Of a stretch of 64,000 nucleotides of DNA, positions 2,929 through 54,917 are shown piece after piece (the stretch's first letter is position 1; the number at the start of each line of letters is the position of its first letter). The stretch is from Nitrospirota bacterium. Its GTDB lineage: Bacteria; Nitrospirota; UBA9217. The stretch is taken from NCBI GenBank assembly GCA_963740085.1, contig CAVUCU010000007.1, positions 122,835 to 186,834 of the forward strand. Reading direction: 5' to 3'. The notes beneath the pieces are model-generated. The model ran no database searches. It saw only the letters and a program-made list of their open reading frames with translations, and was not told the DNA's origin. The translations under genes were made by a program, and so were the position numbers.

Positions 2929-3493
2929 AAGCGGCAATTCTTTGAACCGACAGTCTTCCCCATCCGAGTAAAAAGTTAATATTGAACTTTGGTAATCACG
3001 AATAGATAAGGATGGGCGTAATTGTGGGTGTAGTAAGCCTAAAGTTATGGGTATATAACCCAACACGCACTTTGCTTTTTACTGAGGCATGATGAAATGG
3101 TTTCGTTTAAGGGATATAATGTTTATAAATATTACAAAAAAATTACCAATTTTCCATTTATTGACCGTTCACAAAGGCAAAGAGAGGAGCCGGGCATTTA
3201 GATTATCGTGTAATTGATTCTTCAAAATTCTTTGATGCTGATATTAACTTTTTGTTTTTATTATAATATTTATTCTCAGAAGTGGTTTCATTTATACACA
3301 CGCTGTTTTTTCTTTCACTCCCCCATAATCCCCACGAATCCATATGTACGATTGTCGAACAAACTTACACGAAAAAACATAATACTATTTTAGTACAAAA
3401 TTCAATCAGTTCTGTTTTGGCAATTCTTTTGCATTTTAATTCCATAGAGAAAGAGATTGAGCAGGTAATGTAACCAAAGTTCGGTGAGTATCC

Positions 3494-3700
3494 ATGAGCA
3501 AGCAAGAATTCATTAAAATTACCCGGGAACAGGAAAAAGAGATCAACCATATTTTGAACGACAGCTCTCTTTACCTGAGCATGTCTGCGGCAGAGAGACG
3601 AAAGCTCATACACTATCTCGTATCATCTTACTTTAACCTTCTACCTGTTGAAAACCGTCGGGCCCTTCCCACGGCAATGCGCACCGGATCGGCGATGTAA
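3494..3700 (+). CDS. hypothetical small protein (68 aa) in AT-rich region
   Basis: The ORF has a GGTGAG Shine-Dalgarno-like motif 7 nt upstream and sits in an approximately 35% GC segment. No recognisable domain. Confidence 0.3.
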   Translation: MSKQEFIKITREQEKEINHILNDSSLYLSMSAAERRKLIHYLVSSYFNLLPVENRRALPTAMRTGSAM

Positions 3701-5165: not shown

Positions 5166-5762
5166 ATGCCATCACCGATCGCTAAGGAAGAAAAGCACCG
5201 CTCCCGCATCCGGGACATTGCCCGTTTCCAGCAGAAAAACGGCAGGATGCCCAGTTTTTCAGAGCTCGGCGAGATAACCGGTCTGCGGTCAAAGAACGCG
5301 GTATTCAAGCTTGTAGGCAAGCTGGAAAAGCTCAAGGTCGTGGCGCGGGACAAGAAGGGCAGGCTTATTCCCGGTTCGATCGCCTGCCCTGTCAAGGTGC
5401 TGGGAACGGTCGAGGCAGGCTTCCCCTCTCCCGCGGAAGAAGAGCTGGTTGATACCCTTTCCCTTGATGATTTCCTGATCCAGAACCGGGAGGCAACCTT
5501 TTTGCTCAAGGTATCCGGCGATTCCATGTCCGGCGCGGGGATACTTGCGGGTGATATGGTCATCGTGGATAAGGGCCGGACGCCAAAGAGCGGCGATATT
5601 GTGATCGCCCAGGTGGACGGTGAGTGGACCATGAAGTACTTACGGAAGCGTGGTGACAACGTGACCCTCGTAGCCGCAAACCCCAAATACCAGCCCATCA
5701 AACCGAAGCGTGAACTCAAGATCTCGGGGGTCGTGACAGCCGTGGTGAGAAAATATAAATAG
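5166..5762 (+). CDS. lexA: LexA repressor (wHTH + S24 peptidase domain)
   Basis: The C-terminal 'VSGDSMSGAGILAGDMVIVD...KYLRKRGDNVTLVAANP' has the Ser/Lys dyad context. The N-terminal 'GRMPSFSELGEITGLRS' matches the DNA-binding region. The ORF-track start at 5031 is an over-extension. Confidence 0.85.
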   Translation: MPSPIAKEEKHRSRIRDIARFQQKNGRMPSFSELGEITGLRSKNAVFKLVGKLEKLKVVARDKKGRLIPGSIACPVKVLGTVEAGFPSPAEEELVDTLSLDDFLIQNREATFLLKVSGDSMSGAGILAGDMVIVDKGRTPKSGDIVIAQVDGEWTMKYLRKRGDNVTLVAANPKYQPIKPKRELKISGVVTAVVRKYK

Positions 5763-10607: not shown

Positions 10608-11999
10608 TTATTTGTCGGGCCGGGTCTTTTTTTTCTTCTTTTTAACGAGGGTCGCTTTTTTTTCCGCCGGCGCGGCTCGCTTTTTATCCGGTTTAACTGC
10701 TCGCGGCGACGATGATGGTACGAACAGGGTCGTCGTGACCGAGGAGCTGACCAACGATGGTACGGGTACAGGAGAAGTCAAGCTCAACGATGAGCCGGCA
10801 GTGTCTTGCAGGAGCAGGGGCGCAGAATGAGTCAATCTAAGCGATGAACCCGGAGCATCCTGCTGGAGCGTTGTCTCCGGAGAGGTCGGTGTAATTGCCG
10901 TAGTTACAAGAGGCTGACTTACCAGGAAATTCGTCATCGATTGCTTTGCAGGAACAACGGTTTGACGAGGGAGGGTTTCTTTGGTCGATTTCGCCTGGTA
11001 GTGATAGAGCGTGGCTCCGGCAATAAGGAGAAGCACCGCCGAGGCAACGAGGGCACTCCTGAGCCATCCTCCACTCGTCGGCCTGCTGTTGATGATCCCG
11101 GCTTCCTGCTCCGGCATCGAGTCCAGGATATTCCGCGAGACGAGGTAGTCTGCAATGCGGCGAAGCGAGGCCGCCTTCGTGGTCCTGCCCGCAAGATATC
11201 TTCCCAGTTTTCTCTCGACCTCCAGCATTGAGCCGTAGCGCTGGTGTGGTTTTTTTCTGAGACACTTCTTGATGAGCCGCTGAAGTCGCCACGGAATTTC
11301 TTTGTTGACGCGGCGCGGAGCAAGGAACTTGTCTTTCAAGATCTTAACAGTGACCGAACGGGCATCCTCATCGCTAAAGGGCTTGACACCGGTAAACATC
11401 TCGTACAATACGACGCCGAAGGAAAAGATGTCCGATCGTACATCAAGCTGCTGACCGAGGATCTGCTCGGGTGACATATAGGCGGGCGTCCCGATGAGCG
11501 TGCCGGGCAAGGTCAGGGCCTCAAGGTTCCTGGTATGAGCGATGCCGAAATCCATGAGCTTGACCTCGCCGTTCCTCTTGATCATTATATTGCTCGGTTT
11601 GATGTCGCGGTGGATGAACCCGCGCATATGCGCATAATCCAGGGCATTGCTGACCTGAATGGCGATCATGATCCCCACATCGACCGGCAGGGCCCCGATC
11701 TTCCCGATCACGTCGGCAAAGTTGGCGCCGTCAACGTATTCCATAACGATGCTGTAGGTCGGTTTGTTCCAGTAATCGTAGATGTGAACGATATTCTCGT
11801 GCTGGAGCGAAGCAGCAACCCTGCTTTCGCGCTCGAACCGCTTGACGATCTGGACATCAGCATGATAGGCCTTCTTCAGTTCCTTGATGGCCACCGGCCG
11901 GCCAAGGGACTTCTGGACGGCCTTATACACTGTGGCCATGCCCCCGGCGCCGATCTCGCCCACGACTTCATATTCATCTTTTATCTGTTGTCTCGGCAT
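10608..11999 (-). CDS. Hanks-type Ser/Thr protein kinase with TM segment, Ser/Thr/Pro-rich linker and poly-Lys C-terminus
   Basis: Kinase motifs are 'GAGGMATVYKA', 'VAIK', 'HRDIKPSNIM', 'DFG' and 'APE'. The C-terminus is '...KKATLVKKKKKKTRPDK'. The ORF-track start at 12059 is an over-extension. Confidence 0.85.
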   Translation of the reverse strand: MPRQQIKDEYEVVGEIGAGGMATVYKAVQKSLGRPVAIKELKKAYHADVQIVKRFERESRVAASLQHENIVHIYDYWNKPTYSIVMEYVDGANFADVIGKIGALPVDVGIMIAIQVSNALDYAHMRGFIHRDIKPSNIMIKRNGEVKLMDFGIAHTRNLEALTLPGTLIGTPAYMSPEQILGQQLDVRSDIFSFGVVLYEMFTGVKPFSDEDARSVTVKILKDKFLAPRRVNKEIPWRLQRLIKKCLRKKPHQRYGSMLEVERKLGRYLAGRTTKAASLRRIADYLVSRNILDSMPEQEAGIINSRPTSGGWLRSALVASAVLLLIAGATLYHYQAKSTKETLPRQTVVPAKQSMTNFLVSQPLVTTAITPTSPETTLQQDAPGSSLRLTHSAPLLLQDTAGSSLSLTSPVPVPSLVSSSVTTTLFVPSSSPRAVKPDKKRAAPAEKKATLVKKKKKKTRPDK

Positions 12000-12013
12000 A
12001 ACGATATCCTTAT

Positions 12014-12150
12014 CCGGACAAGCCGGAACCAAATATGCCACAAAGACACGAAGGCACAAAGAAATTCATACAGAGGTTTGTGATTTACCGAGTCCCTAAT
12101 TCTTCGTGTTCTCTTTGAAGCTTGGAGCCTTCGCGGCTGAATTTTGTTTT
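12014..12150. repeat. intergenic repeat family copy A (CCGGACAAGCCGGAACCAAATATGCCACA...CACGAAG...TTCTTCGTG...GCCTTCGCGGCTGAATTTTGTTT)
   Basis: It aligns with copies at 23135-23332 and 53224-53390. It sits between the PP2C and kinase genes inside an operon. Confidence 0.5.
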
Positions 12151-12177
12151 ATTTTAAGAAGATTGATTTGTAACTGT

Positions 12178-12939
12178 CTAAACCTCCGTCACCCAAACCA
12201 CGACCGCCGTGATATTGTCAATGCCCCCGCCGTCGTTTGCCGCGGCCAGCAGCTTGTGTACAGCGTCGCGGGGTCCCGTTGTTGACAGGAGACCGATGAT
12301 CTCTGCATCATCAACCATTCCCGTCAGGCCGTCGGTGCACAGGAGCAGCCGGTCCTCCCGCTGCAGCGCGAGCGAGGTGATGTCCGCCTTCACCTCTTCA
12401 TCGATGCCCAGGGCCCGGGTGATCACATGTCGGTAAGGACTCGTCCTCGCCTGCTCGGGCGTAAGTGCGCCGGCGCGGAGCTGCTCTGCCACGAAAGAAT
12501 GGTCATTCGTCAGCTGCGTGAGCTTCCCGGACCGGAGGAGATAAGCACGGCTGTCACCGATATGAGCAATAAACATGCGGCCCTTCCGGAGCAGAAGTGC
12601 GGTAAGCGTGGTTGCCATACCTGCGAGCCCCGGATTGTGAGTGTGTACCGCGCGAATAGTACGGTTCGCGAGGTTGAGCGCATTCGTAAGCGCCATGGTT
12701 TCGGGATCTGCTCTGGACGTCACTCCTGCCGGAGGAGTCCTGTCCTTTTCTCCGAGCAGGTCCGGCATGGAAGCCGCGAGTGTCTCAACGGCCATGCGGC
12801 TCGCGACCTCTCCTCCCTCGTTCCCCCCCACCCCGTCCGCAACAGCATAGAGGCAGAATTCGTCGTTCAGCAGATACGCGTCTTCGTTATTGGTTCTCTT
12901 TTTACCGGTATCGGTCCCGCCGAAGGAGGCTATCTTCAT
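12178..12939 (-). CDS. PP2C-family Ser/Thr protein phosphatase
   Basis: 'GGTDTGKKRTNNEDAY', 'VADGVGGNEGGEVAS' and the C-terminal 'DGGGIDNITAVVV' are present. Confidence 0.85.
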   Translation of the reverse strand: MKIASFGGTDTGKKRTNNEDAYLLNDEFCLYAVADGVGGNEGGEVASRMAVETLAASMPDLLGEKDRTPPAGVTSRADPETMALTNALNLANRTIRAVHTHNPGLAGMATTLTALLLRKGRMFIAHIGDSRAYLLRSGKLTQLTNDHSFVAEQLRAGALTPEQARTSPYRHVITRALGIDEEVKADITSLALQREDRLLLCTDGLTGMVDDAEIIGLLSTTGPRDAVHKLLAAANDGGGIDNITAVVVWVTEV

Positions 12940-13353
12940 TTACCCGATCTCGTATGTCCGGCTCTTACCAATGTCTTCGAGTATAAACTGGAGAACAGTA
13001 TCTCCAACGCTGAATTTATCGCCATGGTGCAAGGTGGTCTCTTTGATGAGCGTCCCACTCATCCGCGTACCGTTCGTACTCTCCATGTCTCTGAGCCGGT
13101 AATTTCCTTCACCATACTCGATGGCCGCATGCTGACGCGAGACCTGGGCGTCCTTCAGGGCAATGTCGGCGCCCGCATCCCTGCCGATCACCGTGTTCTC
13201 CTTGGTGATCAGGAATTCCATGCCCTCCCCGTATCCCTTTATGATAACCACGGAGGCTTGAAACCTTTCTGGTATTTTTTTCAACGGCTGAGATTGCTTC
13301 TTTATTTGGGTCTTGTCATTCCCGGATCTCGATCCTGTCATCTTCCCCTCCAA
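12940..13353 (-). CDS. FHA domain protein
   Basis: 'TVIGRDAGADIALKDAQVSRQHAAIEY...YRLRDMESTNGTRM' is an FHA core. Its stop is immediately followed by the PP2C ATG (TAAATG). Confidence 0.8.
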   Translation of the reverse strand: MEGKMTGSRSGNDKTQIKKQSQPLKKIPERFQASVVIIKGYGEGMEFLITKENTVIGRDAGADIALKDAQVSRQHAAIEYGEGNYRLRDMESTNGTRMSGTLIKETTLHHGDKFSVGDTVLQFILEDIGKSRTYEIG

Positions 13354-13461
13354 CGTGACGTCATCAGCCTTCGAATATGATAGGGCAAACCCGGGAATAC
13401 GTCAAGACCAAACCCGGTTTTAAGGATTATCATTCCCTTCGCATTGTGATACAATGTCCCC

Positions 13462-14811
13462 ATGAAAAAGAAGGACCAGGAAAATTCACCATCGCGGCGG
13501 ACAACGAGCGACCAGACCAGGGCCCTGACCGGCCTGATCCGGAAGCCGCTTGTTCTGAAAAAAGCCCGCTTCGTGGTGAACCGTGGTCAGGACGAAGGCA
13601 AAGAGATGGTGCTCCAGGACCCCCGCGTCACGATCGGAACTCTCCGGGAGAACAATCTCGTGCTTACCGACACCACGGTTTCGCGCCAGCACGCCATCGT
13701 GGAGGAAACGGCGAAGGGCTACCTGCTCCGCGATCTCGACAGTACCAACGGCACCTTCCTCAACGGCGTGCGCGTCCGCGAGGGATATCTAGCAGCCGGC
13801 TCCCTCATCCGTCTGGGACAGACCGAGCTGACCTTCTCGCCCCTGGAAGAGCATCTCGAGAACCTTCGCAGCTCAGCGGACCGCTTCGGCGCGCTTATCG
13901 GTTCCTCTCCTCCCATGCAGGAGGTCTACGGTATTCTCGAGCGCATCGCACCGACGGACGTCACGGTCCTTCTGGAAGGCGAGACCGGCACCGGCAAGGA
14001 GCTTGCCGCCCGTGCAATCCACGCCAACAGCCGAAGGGCCGACAGCCCTTTTATCGTGTTCGACTGCGGCGCTGTAGCGCCGAACCTCATCGAGAGCGAA
14101 CTGTTCGGCCACGAGAAGGGCGCGTTCACCGATGCGGTCAAAGACCGTCAGGGTGCGTTCGAACTCGCGGACAAAGGCACCATCTTTCTTGACGAGATCG
14201 GGGAACTCTCCCTCGACCTCCAGCCGAAGCTCCTCCGCGCGCTGGACCAGCGCCAGACCAAGCGGGTGGGGGCCGACAAACCGGTCTCGATACACGTCCG
14301 GGTCATCTCCGCGACCAACAAGGACCTTGAAGAAGAAGTCAAGGCCGGACGATTCCGCGAGGACCTCTACTACCGCCTCTCGGTAGTGCGCGTAACCATG
14401 CCCCCGCTTCGGAAGAGGAAGGAAGACCTCGAAACCATCGCAGGGCTTTTGCTCGCGGAAATATCCGCGGAGATCAACAGGAAGATCACGGGCCTTTCTG
14501 CCGAGGCCTCTGCGGCGCTTGCCGCATATTCCTGGCCCGGCAATGTGCGCGAGCTCAAGAATGTCCTTGGGCGGGCCGCGGCGCTCTCCGACAGCGGGCG
14601 GATCGAGCCAAAGGACCTGTTCCTCTCCCAGGGGAAGAAGAACGTCACCCTCGAAGGTCTGAGCGGCAAAACACTGGAAGAGATCGAAAAGGCCGCTATC
14701 CATGCCACGCTCAAGTCAGTGAGCAACAATAAGACCGAGGCCGCCAGGGTGCTCGGCATCGCCTATTCAACGCTGTACGAAAAGATGAAGAAGTACAGGA
14801 TGAAGGAATAA
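13462..14811 (+). CDS. FHA-domain sigma-54-dependent transcriptional activator (FHA + AAA+ enhancer-binding domain + Fis-type HTH)
   Basis: FHA '[25 protein letters not shown]...[14 protein letters not shown]', Walker A 'GETGTGKE', 'GAFTDA' and a sigma-54 interaction module are present, plus a C-terminal HTH '[19 protein letters not shown]'. Confidence 0.85.
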
Positions 14812-15045: not shown

Positions 15046-16248
15046 TCACCCTCCTATTCCCCGCTTCATCATCAGCACAGCGGCGATCGCACCGGCAATC
15101 ACGAGCGTCTCTATAAAAAGCCATGGCCACTTTTTCTTGAACGCGAGCTTCGGTTTCAAGGTCCCCTCTTCCGTCTTTATCGTGATCTGCGGCCGATACT
15201 CCCGGCCAAGTTTCAGCTTTCTGTTTTCCACGCGGAATAAAAGCCGCGCAGCATCCGGCCCGAACGACGCGGGCTTCGGCTTGATCCAGAGATCATCAGT
15301 TGACAAGGTCCCCGTTGATCCGCTGCACCCGAGAGCCATCACCGGAACGCTCACCCATGAGGTCTTTTTCCACCATGGTAGTCTTATCATTTTCCCCGGC
15401 TTGGCGTAAATGATCTTTCCCTTTCCCTTGACGGGCATGGACAGACCGAGCAAAACCTTCTGGATGGCAAGTTTCATAGCATTCGCGCTCTGGAAGCGCC
15501 TGTTCATGTCCGGTTCCAGTGCCTTCCTGATGATGGCAGCCGTCTCCCGGCTCAACCCCGGATTCAGCTGCCGCGGATCAGGAAAGTCAAGAGGATTTTC
15601 CGCAGGGTTCCGACCGGTGAGGCAATGATGCAGCGTGGCGCCGAGTGAAAAGATATCCGAGCGCACGTCGGTCTGGGCCGTGCCGTACTGTTCAGGCGCT
15701 GCATACCCCGGTGTCCCGTATACATAGGTGTCTTTGATCTTGTCATCCTTGAAGAACCGGGCGATGCCGAAGTCGATGAGCTTCACGCGTCCGTTGCGGT
15801 CGATCATGATGTTCGACGGTTTGAGGTCCCGGAACACGATCGGCTGCGGCTTTTGCACGCTCAGAAAGTGCATGGCCCTGCAGACCTGGAGCGCCCAGGA
15901 CAGCACCCGCAGCTCATCCATGGGTTTTCCTCTTTGCGCATCGAGCACCTGCTTCAGCGTATTGCCCCGGATGTATTCCATAACAATAGTGTAAGAGCCC
16001 AACCGGGAGAAGTAATCATACACTTTCGGAAGGTTCTGGTGCGTCAGACGCATGAGTATCCGGGCCTCGGTCTGGAACTGGGTGAGCGCTTCCCCGGGAT
16101 TTTCCGCGGACTGGTTGCCCGGCGTCAATTCCTTTGCAGCGAGCACCGTGCCTCTTTGGAGGCGGTCCGAGACCTTATATACGCATCCCATTCCGCCTCT
16201 GCCGAGGACACCGACGACTTCATATCTTTTTTTGAGAAGACGTTTCAT
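15046..16248 (-). CDS. Hanks-type Ser/Thr protein kinase with C-terminal TM anchor
   Basis: 'GRGGMGCVYK', 'AAKEL', 'FRDLKPSNIMI', 'DFGIA' and 'GTPGYAAPE' are present. The C-terminal hydrophobic stretch is 'WLFIETLVIAGAIAAVLMM'. Confidence 0.8.
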   Translation of the reverse strand: MKRLLKKRYEVVGVLGRGGMGCVYKVSDRLQRGTVLAAKELTPGNQSAENPGEALTQFQTEARILMRLTHQNLPKVYDYFSRLGSYTIVMEYIRGNTLKQVLDAQRGKPMDELRVLSWALQVCRAMHFLSVQKPQPIVFRDLKPSNIMIDRNGRVKLIDFGIARFFKDDKIKDTYVYGTPGYAAPEQYGTAQTDVRSDIFSLGATLHHCLTGRNPAENPLDFPDPRQLNPGLSRETAAIIRKALEPDMNRRFQSANAMKLAIQKVLLGLSMPVKGKGKIIYAKPGKMIRLPWWKKTSWVSVPVMALGCSGSTGTLSTDDLWIKPKPASFGPDAARLLFRVENRKLKLGREYRPQITIKTEEGTLKPKLAFKKKWPWLFIETLVIAGAIAAVLMMKRGIGG

Positions 16249-16329
16249 TGTAACCACCAGTAAGAAGTAATAGGTAATAGGTGAGATGTAACCCATCACC
16301 ATCACCCATTACTCATCACTCATTACTCA

Positions 16330-18612
16330 TTACGCTACTTTAACGCCGCACTTTGCGCAGAACTTCGCATTCGCTCTCATTGAAGAGCCGCAGCCGGCAC
16401 AGAGCCGGCCGGTTCCCTCGCTGAACACGATCGTCGACTGTCCCATGTCTATGACATCACCGTCCGCAAGCACCTGCCTGCCCGTGACCTTCTTTTTGTT
16501 CACATAGGTCCCGGCAATTGAGCCTTTGTCTTCAATGATATAGCGCCCGTTCTCCTGGATGACCTCCGCATGGTGCTGCGCAATATCTTTGTCCTTGAAC
16601 AGGCCGAGCATGTTCCGCTCGTCCCTGCCGATGGTCACGCTCGCGCCGATATCAATAGCCTTTTTCGTTCCCCTGCCCCGCACAAGGCTCAAGTGTCCGG
16701 TCTGATACTGCCGGTCCATCTTTCTGAGCGATATTGTCACGAACCCGGCGATGCTCATCAGGGGGATGACGAAGGCCCAGCCAGGCGTCATGCCGCCCGC
16801 GCCAAAGAGCGACGATTCAGGCTGAAAGTACGTACGCGCAGTACGTGGTCCAGTACCGACTGCAAGCGATACGTTCCTGAGATAGTCGGCCCGCTTCCCG
16901 GTCTGATACGTGATGACATATTCGTTGCGCATCCGGTTGCTGATGGTCAAATAAATCTCCGAGAGGCCGTCCGCCTCGGGAGTGAAAAAATAGGAGCCGC
17001 CGGTCTCTTGCGCTATCCGTTCGAGCCTTGCTTTCCGCACGTCCTTTCCGAGACCGATCACCGTGACCGAAACATAAGCCTTGGCGGCGGACTCGATCGC
17101 CTGGTCCATATCAAGCTCGCCGCGGTTTGCGATACCGTCGGTGAGGACGATCACGGCTTTTCTGCCAGAGACACCGCTGACCGCTTCAACTCCCCGGGCG
17201 ATGCCGTCAAAGAGCGCGGTATGGCCTCCGGGTTGAATGGTCAGAACGGCCTGTCTCAGAATGTTTCGGCTGCCGGTCAGGGACTCGAGCGCGTCCACCT
17301 CGTCACTGAAGGCGAAAAGGGCCGCCCGGTCGCCGGAATCCATGAGCGATATAAAACGCAGCACCGACTCTTTTGCGCGTTCAATTTTCTCTCCGGTCAT
17401 GGACTCGCTCCGGTCCAGCACGATGGCAAGGTTGAGCGGCTCGCGAAGTCCGTTCGCCCCGGCCATCTGCACACTGTCGATCAGGACAGGATAGTTGTTT
17501 TCCGTGATCGTTATATTTCCCCTGGTCAGCCCGAGCACCGGCTTGCCATGTTCATCAATACAGGACAGGTAGGCCTTGACCAGGGGAAAACCGCCCAGAT
17601 CAAACTGGGTGATCTGCACTGATGCCGGCTCGCCGGCCTGCGCCATCGTACCTCCTCCTGAAAAAATCCCAAGCAGAAGCATCACGATTGCCGCCGTGAC
17701 CGCTGCGGCTTTCGCAGGAACCTTGACCGTGGCTTTCTTCACCGCAGAGAACATGAGCAGGATACTGCCCACCCTGATGACATCGCCGTCGGCAAGCCTG
17801 CTGCTTCGCGTCATTTTCTGGTTGATGTATACGGCCTTGCCCTGTTCTTCGGTCTCAATGGAAAAGTGTCCGTTATTCCGCTTTATGACGGCATGCTGTA
17901 TGTTCACGCCTTCCGCACCCGAGAGACAGACATCGGAACGGTCGTCCCTGCCCACCATATTCAGGTCCTTCAGGAGTGAAAACTCTCTGCCGGCATGCCT
18001 TCCTTTGATGACCGTGACCGTTGCCGATATCAAGGCCTCTTCAACAAGACTTATGCAAGAACCTATGGACATTCCAAGCAGCGCAAGACCTGCAAGGGTG
18101 GACCATATCGATGTCACTGAAAGCGCGTTGAATATGCTCCCGCCGATCAGGCCGCCGAGCGAGCCGCCGATGAATCCATAGAGGGCCCGCTCGCGTGACC
18201 GGATCATCAGGCCGCCGCTCAGACCCACCGTGGCGCCGAGCATTGCCCATCCAAGGGCCACGGAAAGGGCTATGCCGACCGAAGCATTGAGTACCATGCC
18301 CTCGGCCACGATCAGTCCGAGCATGGTGAAGATCGTGTTGCCCAGGCCTGCTCCTGCTGCGCCTCCGAGCAGGCCGGCCATAGCGCCATAGAGAGAGCGC
18401 CTGAGCGCGGCCCTGAGCTGCCTGCCCGCTATCGCTTCGTGGCTCCAGATGAAGCCGCCGATGAACATCCCGGCGAGCGCCCCGCGCAAGATCTCCGCAA
18501 GCAATCCCGCTTCAGCAAAGTCCGAAGCCGAAAGGATGAAGAGCCAGGCAGCTGATCCACCGAGTGCGCCTGCCGCTCCGTACGAAAGGGTCTTATTTGA
18601 GAGCCTGATCAT
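16330..18612 (-). CDS. membrane protein with FHA - vWA (MIDAS) - TM - FHA - C-terminal zinc ribbon architecture (760 aa)
   Basis: N-terminal Gly-rich TM helices are followed by FHA1 'MVGRDDRSDVCL...QHAVIKRNNGHFSIE', a vWA with MIDAS 'VLDRSESMTGEKI...IVLTDGIANRG', a TM segment, FHA2 'VTIGRDERNMLG...HHAEVIQENGRYIIEDKGSIAGTYVN' and a zinc ribbon 'CAGCGSSMRANAKFCAKCG'. Confidence 0.8.
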   Translation of the reverse strand: MIRLSNKTLSYGAAGALGGSAAWLFILSASDFAEAGLLAEILRGALAGMFIGGFIWSHEAIAGRQLRAALRRSLYGAMAGLLGGAAGAGLGNTIFTMLGLIVAEGMVLNASVGIALSVALGWAMLGATVGLSGGLMIRSRERALYGFIGGSLGGLIGGSIFNALSVTSIWSTLAGLALLGMSIGSCISLVEEALISATVTVIKGRHAGREFSLLKDLNMVGRDDRSDVCLSGAEGVNIQHAVIKRNNGHFSIETEEQGKAVYINQKMTRSSRLADGDVIRVGSILLMFSAVKKATVKVPAKAAAVTAAIVMLLLGIFSGGGTMAQAGEPASVQITQFDLGGFPLVKAYLSCIDEHGKPVLGLTRGNITITENNYPVLIDSVQMAGANGLREPLNLAIVLDRSESMTGEKIERAKESVLRFISLMDSGDRAALFAFSDEVDALESLTGSRNILRQAVLTIQPGGHTALFDGIARGVEAVSGVSGRKAVIVLTDGIANRGELDMDQAIESAAKAYVSVTVIGLGKDVRKARLERIAQETGGSYFFTPEADGLSEIYLTISNRMRNEYVITYQTGKRADYLRNVSLAVGTGPRTARTYFQPESSLFGAGGMTPGWAFVIPLMSIAGFVTISLRKMDRQYQTGHLSLVRGRGTKKAIDIGASVTIGRDERNMLGLFKDKDIAQHHAEVIQENGRYIIEDKGSIAGTYVNKKKVTGRQVLADGDVIDMGQSTIVFSEGTGRLCAGCGSSMRANAKFCAKCGVKVA

Positions 18613-18725: not shown

Positions 18726-19169
18726 CTATGCCGCCTGGAGCGTCAATGCCAGCTTTCCGAATCTGAGCTCGTCGCCCGCTTTGACCATCTGTGGCGCATG
18801 GGGCTGGATCTTCTTCTTGTTGATATAGGTGCCGTTCGTGGAACCCATGTCCTCAACCGTGTAGTTTGCGCCCGACCGGTGAATGACCGCATGTTTGCGG
18901 GATACGCCCTTATCCATGCCGCCAAGATTGGTCAGGTCCAGATCCGGGAACACATCGCTGATGGGGTCCTCTCTGCCGATAATGATCTCGTCCTTAACAG
19001 GGATCTCGAGCGAGTTGCCATCGATGGACATGAGCACCAGACTTGTCCCTTCGCTGTCCATTTCAGCGGCCGTGTCCTTGCCTTCGATTACGGTTTCAAG
19101 CTTTGCTCCGCACTCTTCGCAGAAGAGCGCTCCTTCGATGTTTTCTATCTGACATGCTGTGCATTTCAT
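18726..19169 (-). CDS. zinc-ribbon + FHA domain protein (147 aa)
   Basis: 'CTACQIENIEGALFCEECG' is followed by FHA 'IIIGREDPI...SRKHAVIHRSGANYTVEDMGSTNGTYIN'. Confidence 0.8.
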   Translation of the reverse strand: MKCTACQIENIEGALFCEECGAKLETVIEGKDTAAEMDSEGTSLVLMSIDGNSLEIPVKDEIIIGREDPISDVFPDLDLTNLGGMDKGVSRKHAVIHRSGANYTVEDMGSTNGTYINKKKIQPHAPQMVKAGDELRFGKLALTLQAA

Positions 19170-19263: not shown

Positions 19264-20529
19264 TCACTGCTTCATCGCCTGCGTCATTGCCTGGGTAAGC
19301 TTCCGTGTGCCGTACTCGAGTTTCTTGGTTCCTGCCGAGGTGAGCGCTCCGGTCTTCTTGAGCGAGAAGATCTCCCGCTCTGCTGCCTCAGCCAGGTCAT
19401 CCTCGCCCAGGTTCAGGAGCACGGTTGCCGCCGACTGGAGCTTCTGCGTGGCTGCCGCGATATTCCCCGCCTCCACCTCGGTGAGCGCCCTGGTCTGGAG
19501 CTTGAAGGCGCTCACCTTCTCTACCAGGTTCATCACCTCGGCGTTCACCTTCGCTGCGGCTGCAGCGTCCTTGGTAAAGGTGACGAACAAATCCGTCTTG
19601 ACGGAGCGGTCCTTGCTGTTCTGCGAGGGGAGGTCATAGCTGACCTCCACCTGCCCAAGTCGGAACTGACCCGCCTTTTGTGCGGGAATTCGCGCTTCTA
19701 TCAAAATTGACTGGCCTTTCCTGCCGTCAAGAGCACCGAGCTCGGTCATGACCGCGCCATTGCGCACGGCCCTCGTGCTCACATCGACGATCAGGGGAGA
19801 GGTGACATATACTTTGTACGGCTTCACACCCCGGCTCATGCGGGCCGTTACCCTGAGGTTCATCGCTGCAACGGCCTGCATGCCCTCCACTTCCTGTTGA
19901 AACGCATCAAGGATAGCGATGGGGTTCTGGATCCAGTGCGAGTTTCCCCGGGATTGCTCGGCAAGCCGGAGCAGGAGTTTCTCGTTCCATTCATTACCGA
20001 TGCCGATGCTCGTTATCGCGATGCCCTGCTTTCCTGCCTCTTCAGCAAGTTTGAGACACACGTCTTCGTCATCCCACGTCTGTCCGTCCGTAAGCAGAAG
20101 GATCCGGTTCACGCGGTCCTTTGCATGGCCCTTCTTCACCTCTGCCAGACCTGCCTTGAGCCCATCAGAGATCTGGGTGCCGCCGCGTGCGATCACGTTC
20201 GCGAGCTTGCCCTTGATCTCCTCGCGATTCTGCGCCGGTTGGCTCGGTATCAGCGTCTCGACCTGATCGTCAAAGATCGTGACGGAGATGAGGTCGTCAT
20301 CGCTCAAATGGTCCACCACGTATCCCACCGCTTCTTTTAAATTGTCCAGTTTCTCGCCATCCATGGAACCGCTCCGGTCGAGCACCAGGCTGAAGTTCGC
20401 CGGCATGTTGCCTGAAACCGGCCCGCTCCCGGCTTTGATGTCAACGAGAGCATAGATTGCCTGTTCCGTCTCTGTGGCCAGCACCGTGTCCTTGCTCATA
20501 ATGCATCGTACCTCTAATCCGTTCTTCAT
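19264..20529 (-). CDS. von Willebrand factor A domain protein (421 aa) with uncharacterised C-terminal helical region
   Basis: MIDAS 'LVLDRSGSMDGEKL' plus 'ISVTIFDDQV' and 'LLLTDGQTWDDE' are present. Confidence 0.8.
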   Translation of the reverse strand: MKNGLEVRCIMSKDTVLATETEQAIYALVDIKAGSGPVSGNMPANFSLVLDRSGSMDGEKLDNLKEAVGYVVDHLSDDDLISVTIFDDQVETLIPSQPAQNREEIKGKLANVIARGGTQISDGLKAGLAEVKKGHAKDRVNRILLLTDGQTWDDEDVCLKLAEEAGKQGIAITSIGIGNEWNEKLLLRLAEQSRGNSHWIQNPIAILDAFQQEVEGMQAVAAMNLRVTARMSRGVKPYKVYVTSPLIVDVSTRAVRNGAVMTELGALDGRKGQSILIEARIPAQKAGQFRLGQVEVSYDLPSQNSKDRSVKTDLFVTFTKDAAAAAKVNAEVMNLVEKVSAFKLQTRALTEVEAGNIAAATQKLQSAATVLLNLGEDDLAEAAEREIFSLKKTGALTSAGTKKLEYGTRKLTQAMTQAMKQ

Positions 20530-20597: not shown

Positions 20598-21554
20598 CTA
20601 TCCCACCGTAACCACTACCGCGGTAATATTGTCCTTGCCGCCATGTGCGTTCGCCAACCGAACCAGTTCCTCACTCGCTGACCGTGCATCTTTTCCGGAT
20701 AAAACGGCCTGGTGAATGTCCTTATCTCTCACCTCTCCCCAGAGTCCATCCGTGCACAGCATGAGATGACCGCCCTTTTTCAGCTCCACCCGGAATGTAT
20801 CCACGGTGATATTCTCATCAGTCCCGATCGTGCGATAGAGCAGATTGGACTTGGGGTGGCCCCTTGCCTCTTCTTTCGTCATTTTCCCAATGGCAACCAG
20901 CTTTGCAACCAGGGAATGGTCCCGGGTGATCTGGGTGATGGACCGTTCTTCTATCCAGTAGACCCTGCTGTCCCCGACATTCGCGATATAGGCGGTATTG
21001 TCAATTACCAGCGCGAGACTGATCGTAGTCCCCATGTTCGATCCCCTGTGCGCGCCCTCTTTTTTCACTTCGCTGTTTGCCTTCCGCACGACATGCTCGA
21101 TGAGCTTGAGTGGGTTCTCGTTCTGCTCCAGATGTTCTTCTATTTCCCTGCAAGCGGTCTCCACCGCGATCCTGCTTGCAACTTCTCCTGCGTCGTGTCC
21201 GCCCATACCGTCAGCCACGACATACAAAGACGCTTTCCCGAAAGAAACACAGGAGAAGCTGTCCTCGTTCTGGGGCCTGACCATGCCCGTGTTCGTCAGA
21301 CCATGCCAGGCATCGGACACTGGTACGGGCACAGGACATCCGGCGTCAAGATCAGCCGCTGCACCTGTCTCAGGCCTCAGCCTCCGCGTATAGGCCGGTT
21401 GGAGCACCTGAGTCATTGATCTGGGTGTCTCTACGAAGGGAAATATTGCCCTTGCTTCAAGAACCTCGTCTGTCAATGTATGCTTTGCAGTTGCCTCCAT
21501 CTTCTCGCCCCTTGTAAACATATTTTTCATCCAGTTTATCCAACCATGTGCCAT
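20598..21554 (-). CDS. PP2C-family Ser/Thr protein phosphatase with N-terminal extension
   Basis: 'VRPQNEDSF', 'VVADGMGGHDAGEVASRIAVE' and 'HGGKDNITAVVV' are present. Confidence 0.8.
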   Translation of the reverse strand: MAHGWINWMKNMFTRGEKMEATAKHTLTDEVLEARAIFPFVETPRSMTQVLQPAYTRRLRPETGAAADLDAGCPVPVPVSDAWHGLTNTGMVRPQNEDSFSCVSFGKASLYVVADGMGGHDAGEVASRIAVETACREIEEHLEQNENPLKLIEHVVRKANSEVKKEGAHRGSNMGTTISLALVIDNTAYIANVGDSRVYWIEERSITQITRDHSLVAKLVAIGKMTKEEARGHPKSNLLYRTIGTDENITVDTFRVELKKGGHLMLCTDGLWGEVRDKDIHQAVLSGKDARSASEELVRLANAHGGKDNITAVVVTVG

Positions 21555-21609
21555 GGTCAGCTCCTGTTCTTTTCATCCGATTCTCAGCTCGCCATCTTGG
21601 TCTACTCAT

Positions 21610-21626
21610 TTGCATCTGCCATGCCA
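21610..21626 (-). promoter_or_regulatory. putative sigma-54 promoter (minus strand reads TGGCATGGCAGATGCAA; GG-N10-GC spacing correct) about 45 nt upstream of the PP2C/vWA/FHA/kinase operon
   Basis: The reverse complement of 21610-21626 matches TGGCAC-N5-TTGCA at 13/16 positions with invariant GG and GC. It is near-identical to the second site at 33919-33934. Confidence 0.5.
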
Positions 21627-22076
21627 GAATTGAAATGAACGATCGCGACGGCACACGGGCAGACAGAAGTCTTTACGATACAGACGGTTGTGGGTATTGA
21701 TGCTGCGGGTGTATTGCTCGGGTGGGGGGGATGATTCGCTGGAAATTATATGGTTATCGAAAGGGGGTATTCGATTTTCGAAGACTAGTGCACGGTAAAA
21801 CTAATTCTTGATTATATTGCACACATATTTATCGTTTATTACCTTGGCATGATTTTAGTTACAGCTAAGTCAATGCATACCTAAAAGGGAAGAATATTTA
21901 ACCGCGAAGGCGCCAAGTACGCGAAGAAAATCTATGGGCTTTTGTTTTAAACACGAAAGCTTTTTTGACGTCCTTTGCGACCCTGGCGCCTTTGCGGTTC
22001 AAAGACTTTGGTTTCGGCTTTTCCGGGTTAGGTAACATGACGGTTCGGAACCATCAACAATTAATTTTATGAGGTA

Positions 22077-33918: not shown

Positions 33919-33934
33919 TGGCATGCTAGATGCA
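33919..33934 (+). promoter_or_regulatory. putative sigma-54 promoter TGGCATGCTAGATGCA (GG-N10-GC)
   Basis: It lies 40 nt upstream of the AAGGAGG-ATG of the first small membrane protein gene. It is near-identical to the minus-strand site at 21610-21626. Confidence 0.5.
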
Positions 33935-33973: not shown

Positions 33974-34297
33974 ATGAAAAACACACTTGCAAGAAAAACA
34001 GCGTACATCGGGGCCGGTGCGGGTTTGGTGCTCTTCGCGATCTTCGGACTTCTCCCGGGCAGTTTGATTGGCGGAGCGGCCGGACTAAAATTAGTTGGTA
34101 TGCTCTTCAACCAGACTCTTGAGGCGGGGATCATCTCGCGGGGCATCGTACTGGCATCCATGCTCATGGGCGTCGTGGTCTCAGGTATCGCCGTCGTGAC
34201 GGCTACGTCAACCACAGGATGGCTTCTGGGAAGAGTGATAGAGGCATCGGTACACCAAGCCGATCCGGAAGCAGCAGTTGTCGTCAGAAATCAATAA
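33974..34297 (+). CDS. small glycine-zipper membrane protein (107 aa), paralog 1 of tandem pair
   Basis: AAGGAGG RBS is present. Two hydrophobic Gly-rich helices are predicted. It is similar to the downstream ORF. Confidence 0.6.
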   Translation: MKNTLARKTAYIGAGAGLVLFAIFGLLPGSLIGGAAGLKLVGMLFNQTLEAGIISRGIVLASMLMGVVVSGIAVVTATSTTGWLLGRVIEASVHQADPEAAVVVRNQ

Positions 34298-34351: not shown

Positions 34352-34669
34352 ATGAAGAACGAAACGGTAAAAGCGGGTATGAAGATCGGTGCAACGGTAG
34401 GTGGTTTGGTTTTCCTGGTGTTTGGCATCATGCCGGGGTTCTATTTCGGCAGCTTCGGAACTCTGGTCCTGCTCCAGAAGTTGATGGGAGGCCCGGTTGA
34501 GCCGACCCTCTTCGTCAGGGCCGCCGTGGTGATGGGAATCGTGGTTGGGATCGCCTGTGCAGCGACAGTGAGCGTTGTGATAGGAGGACTCGCCGGCACG
34601 GTCGCCGGGTATGTGGTATCGGCGCCTGCTGCATTGCGGGGGAAACAAGCTGCTGAGGAAAAAGCCTAA
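34352..34669 (+). CDS. small glycine-zipper membrane protein (105 aa), paralog 2
   Basis: GGAGA RBS is present. The helix layout and motifs match the 33974-34297 product. Confidence 0.6.
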   Translation: MKNETVKAGMKIGATVGGLVFLVFGIMPGFYFGSFGTLVLLQKLMGGPVEPTLFVRAAVVMGIVVGIACAATVSVVIGGLAGTVAGYVVSAPAALRGKQAAEEKA

Positions 34670-46347: not shown

Positions 46348-46515
46348 GAAGAATTCTCCTTTCAAAATGGGGGGAATAAATAAAAAGCGGTGAAGCGGGA
46401 GATTGAATGGTCCTGTTCCCCGTTCACCGATACACCGATGCAAGTATAGCAATATTTTCCGCAGTTGTCCTGAAAAAACCGGACACCCTGTTTCCAGGGC
46501 ATCCGGTTGAACTGA

Positions 46516-54768: not shown

Positions 54769-54917
54769 CGAAGCCTCAATCAGAATAAAATGCAAAAGTC
54801 AAAATGCGAAAGGTAAAGTGCACCACCACATGAGACGCGGATGACAGGATTTCGTTCGGAGAAATCTTTTTGAGTTTCCTAAGCGGCCCTTTTCCTATAA
54901 GGCATGTGCCTCAGCGG

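Follow-up and report, generated by a model that had tools for sequence, protein, structure and literature searches.

A -24/-12 element on the minus strand at 21626-21611 of the window (the whole 64,000-nucleotide stretch of Nitrospirota DNA analysed here) is very probably a real sigma-54 promoter, as judged by comparison with orthologous loci. Taken together with a conserved block farther upstream, it can be regarded with high confidence as a functional sigma-54 promoter with its own enhancer. The promoter would transcribe a five-gene operon, running from 21554 to 15046, for a phosphatase, vWA and FHA proteins and a kinase, and the FHA-type enhancer-binding protein (EBP) encoded next to the operon is likely to be the activator. 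The preliminary description of this DNA had proposed the same combination of promoter, upstream activator site and nearby FHA-type EBP, and the proposal passed every computational test, with the EBP gene syntenic in 10 of 13 loci.

The -24/-12 element and its conservation

The promoter region of the window contains:

21611 to 21626, minus strand: predicted -24/-12 sigma-54 promoter element, TGGCATGGCAGATGCA, with GG at 21625-21624 and GC at 21613-21612
21599 to 21601, minus strand: predicted transcription start, about 12 nt past the GC, placed by established sigma-54 geometry
21561 to 21565, minus strand: ribosome-binding site AGGAG, preceding the ATG at 21554, with GGAG conserved in orthologs

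Direct reading of the minus strand from 21626 to 21610 gives TGGCATGGCAGATGCAA, which bears out both the sigma-54-like motif that had been claimed there and its GG/GC spacing. The GG and the GC are separated by exactly 10 intervening bases, the canonical gap, and 14 of 16 positions agree with TGGCAC-N5-TTGCW, the two mismatches being C6 to T and T12 to A. The -12 region of the element reads ATGCA, not the canonical TTGCA. The GC lies 58 nt from the ATG of the PP2C gene (21554), and the predicted start at about 21600 would give a 5' UTR of about 46 nt, in agreement with the distance of about 45 nt given previously.

The strict core TGGCAY-N6-TGCW is found twice in the 64 kb window, as compared to 0.61 expected occurrences. 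Both sites are intergenic, correctly oriented and 40-58 nt upstream of an ATG with a good ribosome-binding site, and they share the best score in the window, 15.58 bits, under a position weight matrix (PWM) that is our own approximation of the published sigma-54 consensus. The PWM scan that had been suggested was run on the window and on the orthologous loci. At 13.5 bits or above, there are only 19 matches in about 330 kb, 18 of which are intergenic and gene-proximal. The element ties for the best score in the window and is the top site of the whole locus, over both strands, in 11 of the 12 loci that were ranked by PWM.

The comparison drew on 16 distinct orthologous loci from Nitrospirota for which upstream DNA was available; 14 of them are PP2C-derived (PP2C identity 51-79%). 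TtTGGCAyG-N4-ATGCA stands at the same place in all 16, and the distance from its GC to the PP2C start is 34-59 nt across the orthologs. Column information peaks only on TGGCA and ATGCA; the N4-5 spacer varies freely, the flanks are not conserved, and the intergenic sequence around the motif is otherwise unalignable between loci. The conserved columns are exactly the positions contacted by sigma-54 (TGGCA, TGC), and their spacing is invariant in every locus. This comparative evidence makes a chance origin of the motif very unlikely. The failure of the relaxed consensus TGGCAC-N5-TTGCW to be enriched at two mismatches in the window (22 found, 28 expected) would suit a chance match without function. 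However, the strict core is rare and the motif is kept in 16 of 16 loci amid sequence that cannot be aligned, and a chance match is effectively refuted, with almost no weight left to it.

Among the PP2C loci examined, the -24/-12 element was not found upstream of the Myxococcota and Chloroflexota PP2C genes. The probable clade-specific flavour of the sigma-54 -12 region, gATGCAa, would be useful for predicting regulons in Nitrospirota.

Use of sigma-54 by the organism is supported indirectly, because the window contains a second gene for a sigma-54 EBP (PF00158, 53419-54795) and a second strong -24/-12 site at 33919; rpoN was not found in the 64 kb window. For Nitrospira, sigma-54 regulators have been reported ahead of the nxr operons (PMC7522533).

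The probable upstream enhancer and the intergenic region

A near-invariant block, TTCGAAAATCGAATAC-N6/7-TTCGATAATCATA, lies upstream of the promoter in all loci (21782-21749 in the window). The intergenic features are:

21770 to 21782, minus strand: putative enhancer (UAS) site 1, TTCGAAAATCGAA, a perfect dyad TTCGA-AAA-TCGAA centred at about -176
21749 to 21761, minus strand: putative enhancer (UAS) site 2, TTCGATAACCATA, consensus TTCGATAATCATA, centred at about -155
21660 to 21702, minus strand: middle block, cATCAAtAcccACAACCatCtGTAtCATAAcGaCTT, moderately conserved, between enhancer and promoter

Site 1 carries about 2 bits per column across 14 loci. Its exact match is unique in the window, and each orthologous locus has a single copy of the site, in every case ahead of the PP2C gene. 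Site 2 is conserved in all loci, at a constant offset of 21-23 bp from site 1, or about two helical turns. The TTCGAAA-type repeats that had been suspected around 21730-21790 are real: no part of the intergenic region is more conserved than the dyads at 21782-21770 and 21761-21749, which stay in helical phase with the promoter.

In 14 loci, 152-157 bp separate the enhancer block from the -24 element; in two independent loci the separation is 144-145 bp, shorter by one helical turn. Phasing at a 10.5-bp period gives R = 0.69 (simulated p of about 0.001) for the first 14 loci, with independence overstated by the kinship among them. The closed complex at sigma-54 promoters needs an AAA+ activator. 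The activator is proposed to bind the bipartite enhancer about 155 bp upstream, at two 13-bp sites set two helical turns apart, TTCGA-AAA-TCGAA and TTCGA-TAA-TCATA, and to reach the polymerase through DNA looping, which would account for the helical phase of the enhancer-promoter distance. In the window, the insertion point of a 290-nt element coincides with the outer edge of the enhancer, and the unit from enhancer to ATG is intact.

Alternatively, a sigma-70 promoter, or read-through out of the nitroreductase/dcd genes upstream, might drive the operon. TGGCA-N7-TGCA and the upstream block would then serve as sites for regulators of the sigma-70 type, and any likeness to a -24/-12 element would be incidental. 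The -12 flank, ATGCA in place of TTGCA, would fit, as would the TATAAT that forms part of enhancer site 2 in the window and the upstream gene, after which no terminator was found and which lies on the same strand and abuts the enhancer in L083, L085 and L087. The TATAAT-like hexamer, however, is not conserved, with the key T6 lost in L088, L090, L057 and L007, and a sigma-70 promoter within the enhancer was rejected because the scan does not call one; scanning from 22060 to 21555, which takes in the DNA between enhancer and ATG, found no sigma-70-like site or hexamer pair. In L088 and L090 the upstream gene lies on the other strand, divergent from the operon, and the operon therefore needs its own promoter there. 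Conservation of the sigma-54 contact positions, at a spacing that is the same in all 16 loci and around a spacer that varies freely, and phasing at about 155 bp, which is typical of looping activators and not of sigma-70 class I or II, also argue for the sigma-54 promoter and make transcription by sigma-70 very improbable. Some read-through transcription into the operon is possible where the upstream gene, on the same strand and lacking a terminator, ends at the enhancer (L085, L083).

The middle block could be a site for a DNA-bending protein or a weak third activator site. An IHF site was considered there and dropped, given that by our own reading it agrees only in part with the consensus WATCAANNNNTTR. 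Further copies of the enhancer were sought in the window, where only two-mismatch matches at chance level were found, and none in the EBP intergenic region. With no copy beyond chance level, autoregulation of the EBP gene and control of the 33919 promoter through a second enhancer were both discarded. The heptamer GATAATC is common to enhancer site 2 and the -35 region of the EBP gene, probably by coincidence. Rfam at gathering thresholds found no RNA element in the 520-bp intergenic region.

The candidate activator and its signalling partners

The operon had been described as PP2C-vWA-FHA-kinase, and Pfam confirms the domains PP2C, vWA, Zn-ribbon-FHA, FHA-vWA-FHA and Pkinase in its five genes:

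20598 to 21554, minus strand: gene 1, PP2C phosphatase with an 85-aa N-terminal extension containing T48-QVL and T56-RRL (Pfam)
19264 to 20529, minus strand: gene 2, vWA protein, ArnB-like (Pfam; PDB 8s05_A)
18726 to 19169, minus strand: gene 3, Zn-ribbon and FHA protein, ArnA-like (Pfam; PDB 5a8i, 8s05_C)
16330 to 18612, minus strand: gene 4, polytopic membrane protein, FHA-vWA-FHA (Pfam; six TM-like segments)
15046 to 16305, minus strand: gene 5, Hanks-type Ser/Thr kinase with a C-terminal TM anchor (Pfam; TM at 393-411)

In the extension of gene 1, T56, R58 and L59 are invariant. The best PDB match for gene 2 is 8s05_A (2.8e-10, near full length), with 5a8j 'VWA2' at 1.9e-6; for gene 3, the best matches are 5a8i 'ARNA' (1.6e-9) and 8s05_C, and the canonical GR is retained. 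Therefore, the adjacent vWA gene, with its C-terminal extension, and Zn-ribbon-FHA gene can be called ArnA/ArnB-like, at modest sequence similarity.

The EBP gene lies beyond the far end of the operon, next to a second signalling operon:

13462 to 14811, plus strand: FHA-AAA+(sigma-54)-HTH_8 EBP, convergent with the five-gene operon, with a GAFTDA loop and an N-terminal T19-x-x-L
13427 to 13455, plus strand: sigma-70-type promoter of the EBP gene, TTATCA-17-TGaTACAAT (scan; conserved in 7 loci)
13377 to 13405, minus strand: sigma-70-type promoter of the second operon, TTGACG-17-TATCAT (scan, 10 of 12; conserved)
10608 to 13341, minus strand: second operon, for an FHA protein, a PP2C and a TM Ser/Thr kinase, divergent from the EBP gene (Pfam)
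12940 to 13341, 12178 to 12939 and 10608 to 12059, minus strand: genes of the second operon for the small FHA protein, the PP2C and the kinase, respectively

Pfam also upholds the claim that 13462-14811 encodes an FHA-domain sigma-54 activator, with matches to FHA, Sigma54_activat (PF00158, 2.4e-69), AAA_lid_14 and HTH_8 (PF02954, 5e-14). The FHA region matches PF00498 at 5e-16 and the YscD-type FHA-like family PF16697 slightly better, at 2e-18. In the ortholog alignment the Walker motifs GETGTGKE and FLDEIGE are invariant and the C-terminal Fis-type HTH is almost invariant, and the best PDB match is ZraR (1ojl, 9e-84, to the AAA+/HTH part). At the position of the GAFTGA loop, through which such activators contact sigma-54, the EBP of the window and about 110 of 120 homologs have GAFTDA, with the F and T retained. 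GAFTDA is among the variants said to retain activity and is carried by DVU2106 of D. vulgaris (PMC4641369).

The EBP gene adjoins the operon downstream in 10 of 13 informative loci (the window, L083, L088, L057, L009, L089, L090, L092, L094 and L096), even where the other surroundings have changed. The two are convergent, not divergent, and share no control region. Many Myxococcota-type loci also have an FHA-type EBP 2-5 kb from a PP2C; the one annotated (L026) contains RadC, TGT and a lone PP2C, and no vWA/FHA operon.

The FHA-AAA+-HTH_8 protein would be the most likely activator of the operon promoter. The link between this EBP and the enhancer is drawn from synteny and joint invariance, the sequences varying too little for covariation. 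A different EBP might bind TTCGA-N3-TCGAA, in which case the promoter and enhancer would still depend on sigma-54 and the FHA-type EBP would regulate other genes. The convergent orientation, without a shared control region, is compatible with such a division of labour, and at least one further EBP is encoded in the window. L007 and L093 retain promoter and enhancer with no EBP gene within the flank of about 4-10 kb, and in L095 the EBP is present but the operon is missing, two further strong -24/-12 sites lie close by, and there is no copy of the enhancer. Set against this are the retention of the EBP gene directly after the end of the operon in 10 of 13 loci, the near-invariance in the clade of both the EBP HTH and the enhancer, and the FHA domain and TxxL tail of the EBP, which draw on a signalling repertoire shared with the operon products. 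Binding of the enhancer by another EBP is therefore improbable.

In FHA domains, the Arg of the Gly-Arg in the beta3-beta4 loop contacts phosphate. The preliminary description had a Thr-phosphorylated partner bound through the FHA domain of the EBP. The FHA fold is there, and the pocket motifs SRQHA (Ser-x-x-His) and STNG (Asn-Gly) are kept and conserved, but the canonical phosphate-binding Arg is absent in 119 of 119 orthologs (T in 107, S in 9, A in 2 and K in 1). The EBP reads IG-T where Rv1747, FhaA and GarA read IGR or AGR, and 117 of the 119 orthologs have no basic residue within the next four positions. Given the missing Arg, this step is weakened, and it is doubtful that the domain reads a phosphothreonine partner.

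A feedback loop between the EBP and the kinase/phosphatase/vWA operon had also been proposed. The proposal missed the second operon, which is syntenic in L083, L088, L057, L090 and L094 and whose FHA protein (133 aa, with a canonical 'GR'), PP2C and kinase are the more obvious candidate for controlling the EBP. Sigma-54 control of the EBP gene or of the second operon was considered and rejected, given that both have conserved sigma-70-type promoters instead. This arrangement suggests a two-tier relay, not a simple autoregulatory loop. The -10 of the EBP promoter ends 6 nt before the ATG, so the EBP mRNA is probably leaderless.

In short, the EBP and the divergent FHA-PP2C-kinase operon would apparently be expressed constitutively from sigma-70-type promoters, the constitutive kinase, phosphatase and FHA set would control assembly of the activator, and the activator would then induce a second, membrane-anchored set for phospho-threonine signalling. 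The whole explanation, with a sigma-54 promoter, a looping enhancer, an FHA-type activator and a two-tier relay, is probable on the sequence evidence.

The N-terminal tail of the EBP is short and otherwise variable, with a conserved Thr-x-x-Leu. Control of the EBP by Thr phosphorylation of this tail can be suggested only tentatively, and it is somewhat unlikely that the EBP acts as a phospho-ligand, rather than a phospho-reader, in a two-tier relay from Hanks-type kinase to sigma-54. In such a relay, the TM kinase/PP2C pair (10608-12939) would set the phosphorylation of the Thr-x-x-Leu, and a canonical 'GR' FHA protein, either the 133-aa divergent one or the operon's own, would capture the tail. 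The Arg-less FHA-like domain of the EBP would serve as a module for phospho-independent assembly or autoinhibition, and release or capture of the tail would gate assembly of the AAA+ ring at the TTCGA-N3-TCGAA enhancer. The induced products would form a membrane ArnA/ArnB-like pThr complex, and the operon PP2C and kinase would feed back on the EBP tail. If true, the model would for the first time give an FHA-type sigma-54 activator a defined mechanism and target.

Comparison with known systems

In kind, this is an ordinary enhancer-dependent promoter and a well-supported bacterial switch. As in glnAp2/NtrC, nifH/NifA, pspA/PspF and zraP/ZraR, a GG-N10-GC core in a TGGCA...TGCA context lies about 12 nt before the predicted start. 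Classical sigma-54 systems likewise have an upstream enhancer of two neighbouring dyads that share one face of the helix, at about -150 to -180, and an AAA+ activator with a C-terminal Fis-type HTH. The -12 flank, in contrast, is ATGCA throughout the clade in place of TTGCA; the sensory domain of the EBP is of an FHA-like type, where classical activators have a receiver, GAF or PAS domain, and the EBP loop is GAFTDA; and the genes under presumed control are a Ser/Thr kinase and phosphatase signalling set, unlike classical sigma-54 targets.

FHA-type sigma-54 activators were described in 2005; Jelsbak, Givskov & Kaiser (2005, PNAS 102:3010) reportedly treat the FHA-domain enhancer-binding proteins of Myxococcus xanthus. 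Those proteins resemble the present one in the order FHA-AAA+(sigma-54)-HTH and in the idea that Ser/Thr kinase signalling feeds sigma-54 transcription. Here, by contrast, the host belongs to the Nitrospirota, the probable target promoter, enhancer and syntenic kinase and phosphatase partners can be named, and the canonical Arg is missing from the FHA domain. The Myxococcota-type FHA-EBPs that were sampled are about 40% identical, carry GAFTGA or GSFTGA and lie in a different gene context, with no such operon.

No enhancer sequence, target promoter or switching mechanism for any FHA-type sigma-54 activator was found in the literature. The locus is a compact and conserved test bed, with a 13-bp dyad enhancer, a phased -24/-12 promoter and the activator gene within 11 kb that also hold two kinase/phosphatase pairs and at least four FHA domains. 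It lends itself to asking how eukaryote-like Ser/Thr kinases communicate with sigma-54 transcription, even though the host lineage, uncultured Nitrospirota, is not tractable.

The gene content resembles DRA0331-0334 of Deinococcus radiodurans, where vWA, STPK, FHA and PP2C genes are described in one operon and kinase-phosphatase antagonism is modulated by FHA docking (bioRxiv 10.64898/2026.01.23.701218). Compared by description, that operon differs in gene order and fusions, and its abstract reports no sigma-54 promoter or EBP. A vWA gene followed by a Zn-ribbon-FHA gene recalls the ArnA/ArnB module for repression of motility in Sulfolobus acidocaldarius (PMC6509490). Among solved structures, the best matches of genes 2 and 3 include the ArnB paralog vWA2 (5a8j), ArnA (5a8i) and both chains of 8s05, and in each of the two systems the pair has Hanks-type kinases and phosphatases alongside and is linked to transcriptional control. 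The present pair, unlike ArnA/ArnB, is bacterial, of modest similarity (E of about 1e-9 to 1e-10), probably under a sigma-54 promoter and without a link to archaellum genes.

A variable N-terminal tail with Thr-x-x-Leu/Ile before an FHA domain and an output domain is shared with Bdellovibrio DgcB (PMC6733907) and mycobacterial GarA. DgcB and GarA have a canonical pThr pocket, whereas the pocket Arg is absent from all 119 orthologs of the Nitrospirota EBP, and because of this absence the readers of the EBP tail may instead be the remaining FHA proteins of the cluster, which are canonical.

Promoter and genes of the PP2C operon

The minus strand from 21626 to 21610 reads TGGCATGGCAGATGCAA, just as the preliminary description had it, with canonical spacing between the GG (21625-21624) and the GC (21613-21612) and two mismatches to TGGCAC-N5-TTGCW, both at non-critical positions. 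The PP2C reading frame starts with the ATG at 21554, 58 nt from the GC, and AGGAG lies 5' of it at 21565-21561. A predicted transcription start near 21600, 12 nt past the GC, would give a 46-nt leader, which makes the earlier figure of about 45 nt to the start codon a fair one.

The window shows no enrichment of the relaxed consensus (22 matches, 28 expected); the strict core, TGGCAY-N6-TGCW, is present just twice against 0.61 expected. An approximate PWM, our own rendering of the published sigma-54 consensus, was run on the window, and both strict-core sites share its top score of 15.58 bits, such that the flagged site ties for best. Across the window and the Nitrospirota loci (~330 kb), 19 matches score at least 13.5 bits, and the specificity of the PWM is supported by the fact that 18 of them are intergenic and gene-proximal. 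A promoter scan found no sigma-70-like hexamer pair between enhancer and ATG, and Rfam gave no matches in the window.

Orthologous loci were gathered from reference genomes and, by exact-protein look-ups, from metagenome contigs. DNA 5' of a PP2C ortholog is available for 16 distinct loci: the window and the related loci with the handles L003, L004, L006, L007, L057, L083, L085, L087, L088, L089, L090, L092, L093, L094 and L096. The 14 loci reached through PP2C have 51-79% identity in that protein. The window belongs to a 201.5-kb metagenome contig, and its nearest relatives are Nitrospirota MAGs. The motif TtTGGCAyG-N4-(g)ATGCA is present on the coding strand in all 16, with its GC 34-59 nt from the start codon, and is the top-scoring site of the entire locus (up to 21 kb, both strands) in 11 of the 12 loci that were ranked. 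When the loci are aligned on the motif, the columns of TGGCA and ATGCA carry close to the maximum information, and the N4 spacer and the flanks carry little; therefore, the sigma-54 contact bases are conserved rather than the whole region. No such -24/-12 site lies upstream of the PP2C genes of Myxococcota and Chloroflexota loci (at most 49% identity), which have neither the N-terminal extension nor the operon. This conservation, together with the enhancer block upstream, supports the proposal of a sigma-54 promoter for the PP2C operon, and we regard a functional promoter with an enhancer as very probable. In the contig L004, from a MAG labelled 'Betaproteobacteria' (5371-5571), the stand-alone vWA gene is absent and the Zn-FHA gene directly follows PP2C, although promoter and enhancer are kept.

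Pfam confirms the five-gene composition of the operon, and the architecture at 13462-14811 agrees with the claim of a nearby FHA-type sigma-54 activator, here called the EBP (enhancer-binding protein). A second operon, divergent from the EBP gene, had been missed.

Table. Features of the cluster; the five-gene operon and the EBP are assigned by Pfam
21782-21746, minus: putative enhancer block, conserved across loci
20598-21554, minus: PP2C (PP2C1)
19264-20529, minus: vWA protein
18726-19169, minus: Zn-ribbon-FHA protein
16330-18612, minus: FHA-vWA-FHA protein
15046-16305, minus: Ser/Thr kinase
13462-14811, plus: EBP, with FHA, Sigma54_activat (2e-69), AAA_lid_14 and HTH_8
13427-13455, plus: predicted sigma-70-type promoter of the EBP gene, TTATCA-17-TGaTACAAT
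13405 to 13377, minus: predicted sigma-70-type promoter of the second operon (FHA-PP2C-kinase), TTGACG-17-TATCAT
12940-13341, minus: 133-aa FHA protein, second operon
12178-12939, minus: second PP2C, second operon
10608-12059, minus: second kinase, second operon

Probable enhancer, spacing and upstream boundary

A motif-anchored view of the loci reveals a near-invariant block upstream of the promoter, TTCGAAAATCGAATAC-N6/7-TTCGATAATCATATAA, which falls in the window inside the interval (21730-21790) where TTCGAAA/TTTCGAA-type dyads had been suspected. Of its two sites, site 1 (TTCGA-AAA-TCGAA) forms a perfect dyad, and a degenerate copy of it, site 2 (TTCGA-TAA-TCATA), follows after 21-23 bp, or two helical turns. 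The enhancer 15-mer occurs as one exact copy per locus, including the window, and always upstream of PP2C. The T of TGGCA lies 152-157 bp from where site 1 starts in 14 loci and 144-145 bp from it, one helical turn less, in the separate loci L089 and L007; these would be two independent 10-11 bp indels of the kind that a face-of-helix constraint predicts. For the first 14 loci, the distances have a circular concentration of R = 0.69 at a period of 10.5 bp, a value reached by ~0.1% of uniform-distance simulations, in a statistic that overstates independence because the loci are related. Bending-protein sites are often found between enhancer and promoter, and a moderately conserved block there, 21702-21660, matches the IHF consensus only in part. 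The TATAAT within site 2 was ruled out as a promoter hexamer, given that it is not conserved across loci.

As to boundaries and ALTERNATIVES, the upstream gene's stop codon adjoins the enhancer in L083, L085 and L087. In the window, a MITE-like insertion of ~290 nt (21785-22076, minus strand) separates the enhancer from the nitroreductase stop codon, exactly at their junction, and the enhancer-to-ATG unit is intact despite it. The insertion is window-specific and bordered by duplicated CACTAG; nested inverted repeats lie within it (21878-21891/22021-22034 and 21897-21926/21973-22002), the latter pair with the motif AACCGCGAAGGCGCC. Related but diverged sequences lie in further gaps between genes of L088 (two copies), L095, L093 and L057, including the gap that separates the EBP gene from the second operon. 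Because the gene upstream is on the opposite strand in L088 and L090, the operon must have its own promoter there.

The likely activator and its possible control

In the window, L083, L088, L057, L009, L089, L090, L092, L094 and L096, the EBP gene directly follows the operon in convergent orientation; the genes that flank this pair vary, and L089 and L092 lack the second operon. Three loci depart from this arrangement. In L007 and L093, operon, enhancer and promoter are present and the flank that is available contains no EBP. In L095, the EBP is followed by an apparent inserted island (HNH and TIR-DnaB genes) instead of the operon, and the locus has no enhancer copy. The EBP is 72-92% identical over 120 cluster representatives, above the conservation of its neighbours; in the homolog alignment Walker A and B are invariant and the HTH nearly so, paralleling the invariance of the enhancer. 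Its AAA+/HTH part matches ZraR (1ojl) at 9e-84. The sigma-54 contact loop is GAFTDA in ~110 of 120 homologs, a variant listed among those said to retain activity and carried by DVU2106 (D. vulgaris regulome, PMC4641369). Synteny suggests that the neighbouring FHA-EBP is the likely activator of the operon promoter.

The EBP gene and the second operon are 120 bp apart, and this stretch has a conserved sigma-70-type promoter for each of them and no -24/-12 element. The extended -10 of the EBP promoter (TGaTACAAT) stops 6 nt short of the ATG with no RBS, an arrangement kept in seven loci that suggests a leaderless mRNA. The simple feedback loop of the preliminary description, in which the EBP drives the operon that controls it, keeps its sigma-54 promoter but says too little: since the EBP gene and the second operon carry sigma-70-type promoters and no -24/-12 element, a two-tier layout is suggested, in which kinase 2, PP2C 2, the small FHA protein and the EBP would form a constitutive sensing tier and the five-gene operon an inducible one.

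Phospho-FHA control of the EBP is plausible in outline, but the proposal that its FHA domain binds a Thr-phosphorylated partner is doubtful. The canonical Arg of FHA domains contacts the phosphate, and the EBP has IGT (residues ~58-62) where Rv1747, FhaA and GarA have IGR or AGR. All 119 EBP orthologs lack the Arg (T in 107, S in 9, A in 2, K in 1), and 117 have no nearby basic residue; SRxHA and TNG are kept. The GR is kept by three other FHA domains of the cluster, those of the small FHA protein and the Zn-FHA protein and the C-terminal one of the membrane protein. Sampled Myxococcota-type FHA-EBPs have G-S or G-G at a position equivalent by eye only, not by alignment.

Thr-x-x-Leu/Ile is a classic FHA ligand motif, and the N-terminal tail of the EBP, elsewhere variable, has a nearly universal (D/N)-x-T-E/Q-[V/I]-L (T19-R-A-L in the window). 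The tail might thus be the phospho-ligand, with the canonical FHA proteins as readers, a model that we infer to fit at least as well as binding of a pThr partner. A clade-specific N-terminal extension of PP2C1 has, within residues 45-60, two similar motifs, T48-QVL (SMT48QVL) and T56-RRL (YT56RRL); T56, R58 and L59 do not vary among 16 homologs. Both motifs are candidate docking sites for the cluster's many FHA domains. If the residual FHA pocket of the EBP suffices, a self-tail switch of the DgcB/GarA type is also possible, by analogy with DgcB (PMC6733907).

Other predicted sigma-54 sites and comparison with known systems

No rpoN was found within the 64-kb window, and the indirect evidence that the organism uses sigma-54 is good. 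A second EBP, an NtrC-type response regulator (REC-AAA+), is encoded at 53419-54795 (minus), downstream of an SSF-PAS histidine kinase (54918-57875, minus) with an N-terminal sodium:solute-symporter domain and a CbrA/CrbS-like architecture. Acetyl-CoA synthetase and SSF transporter genes lie nearby (44371-48327, minus); no strong -24/-12 site precedes these or the second-EBP/kinase genes. Besides the flagged promoter, the window also holds another top-scoring -24/-12 site and a plausible third. Sigma-54-dependent regulators have been described at Nitrospira nxr operons (PMC7522533).

The second top-scoring site, TGGCATGCTAGATGCA at 33919-33934 (plus), also of the gATGCAa flavour, is intergenic: a DEAD-box helicase gene and its terminator come before it, and an ATG with an AAGGAGG RBS follows 40 nt downstream. 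The site precedes tandem paralogous small membrane proteins of 107 and 105 aa (33974-34297 and 34352-34669), which have no Pfam match and are flanked by two DEAD-box helicase genes; the site has no copy of the TTCGA-N3-TCGAA enhancer. A third candidate, TGGCAATTCTTTTGCA at 3418-3433 (plus, 14 bits), lies in an AT-rich, ORF-poor stretch of ~1.4 kb, 60 nt before a 68-aa ORF (3494-3700) with a weak RBS; ~60 bp upstream is a two-mismatch relative of the enhancer dyad, TTCGACAATCGTA (3347-3359, minus). Within the island that replaces the operon in L095, very strong canonical sites stand in tandem 5' of small uncharacterised genes, TGGCACGTACTTTGCT at 13204-13219 (plus, 18.4 bits) and TGGCACTTATTTTGCT at 13275-13290 (plus, 15.9 bits). 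A strong site (~15 bits) precedes a RadC-like gene in the Myxococcota-type loci L026 (4281), L018 (4234) and L022 (4156), all plus; there the RadC-like gene is convergent with a longer (653-aa) FHA-EBP, a context that differs from that in Nitrospirota.

The adjacent vWA and Zn-FHA genes of the five-gene operon resemble archaeal ArnA/ArnB, a phospho-dependent regulatory module (PMC6509490), given their best solved relatives: 8s05_A (near full length) and also 5a8j 'VWA2', an ArnB paralog, for the vWA protein, and 5a8i 'ARNA' and 8s05_C for the Zn-FHA protein. The FHA-vWA-FHA protein is polytopic and both kinases have a TM segment; judged from sequence, the operon product is a membrane-associated phospho-threonine signalling assembly. 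A vWA/STPK/FHA/PP2C operon in which kinase and phosphatase act antagonistically is reported from Deinococcus (bioRxiv 10.64898/2026.01.23.701218).

The PP2C-operon promoter is the same in kind as classical enhancer-dependent sigma-54 promoters, and FHA-type EBPs are reportedly a described class, from work by Jelsbak et al. in 2005. Literature searches found no description of this Nitrospirota promoter-enhancer-EBP-kinase/phosphatase system. What is new is the specific conserved ensemble of promoter, enhancer, activator and kinase/phosphatase in Nitrospirota, along with the clade-specific ATGCA flavour of the -12 element, an FHA domain without its canonical Arg, and a TxxL tail that is conserved.
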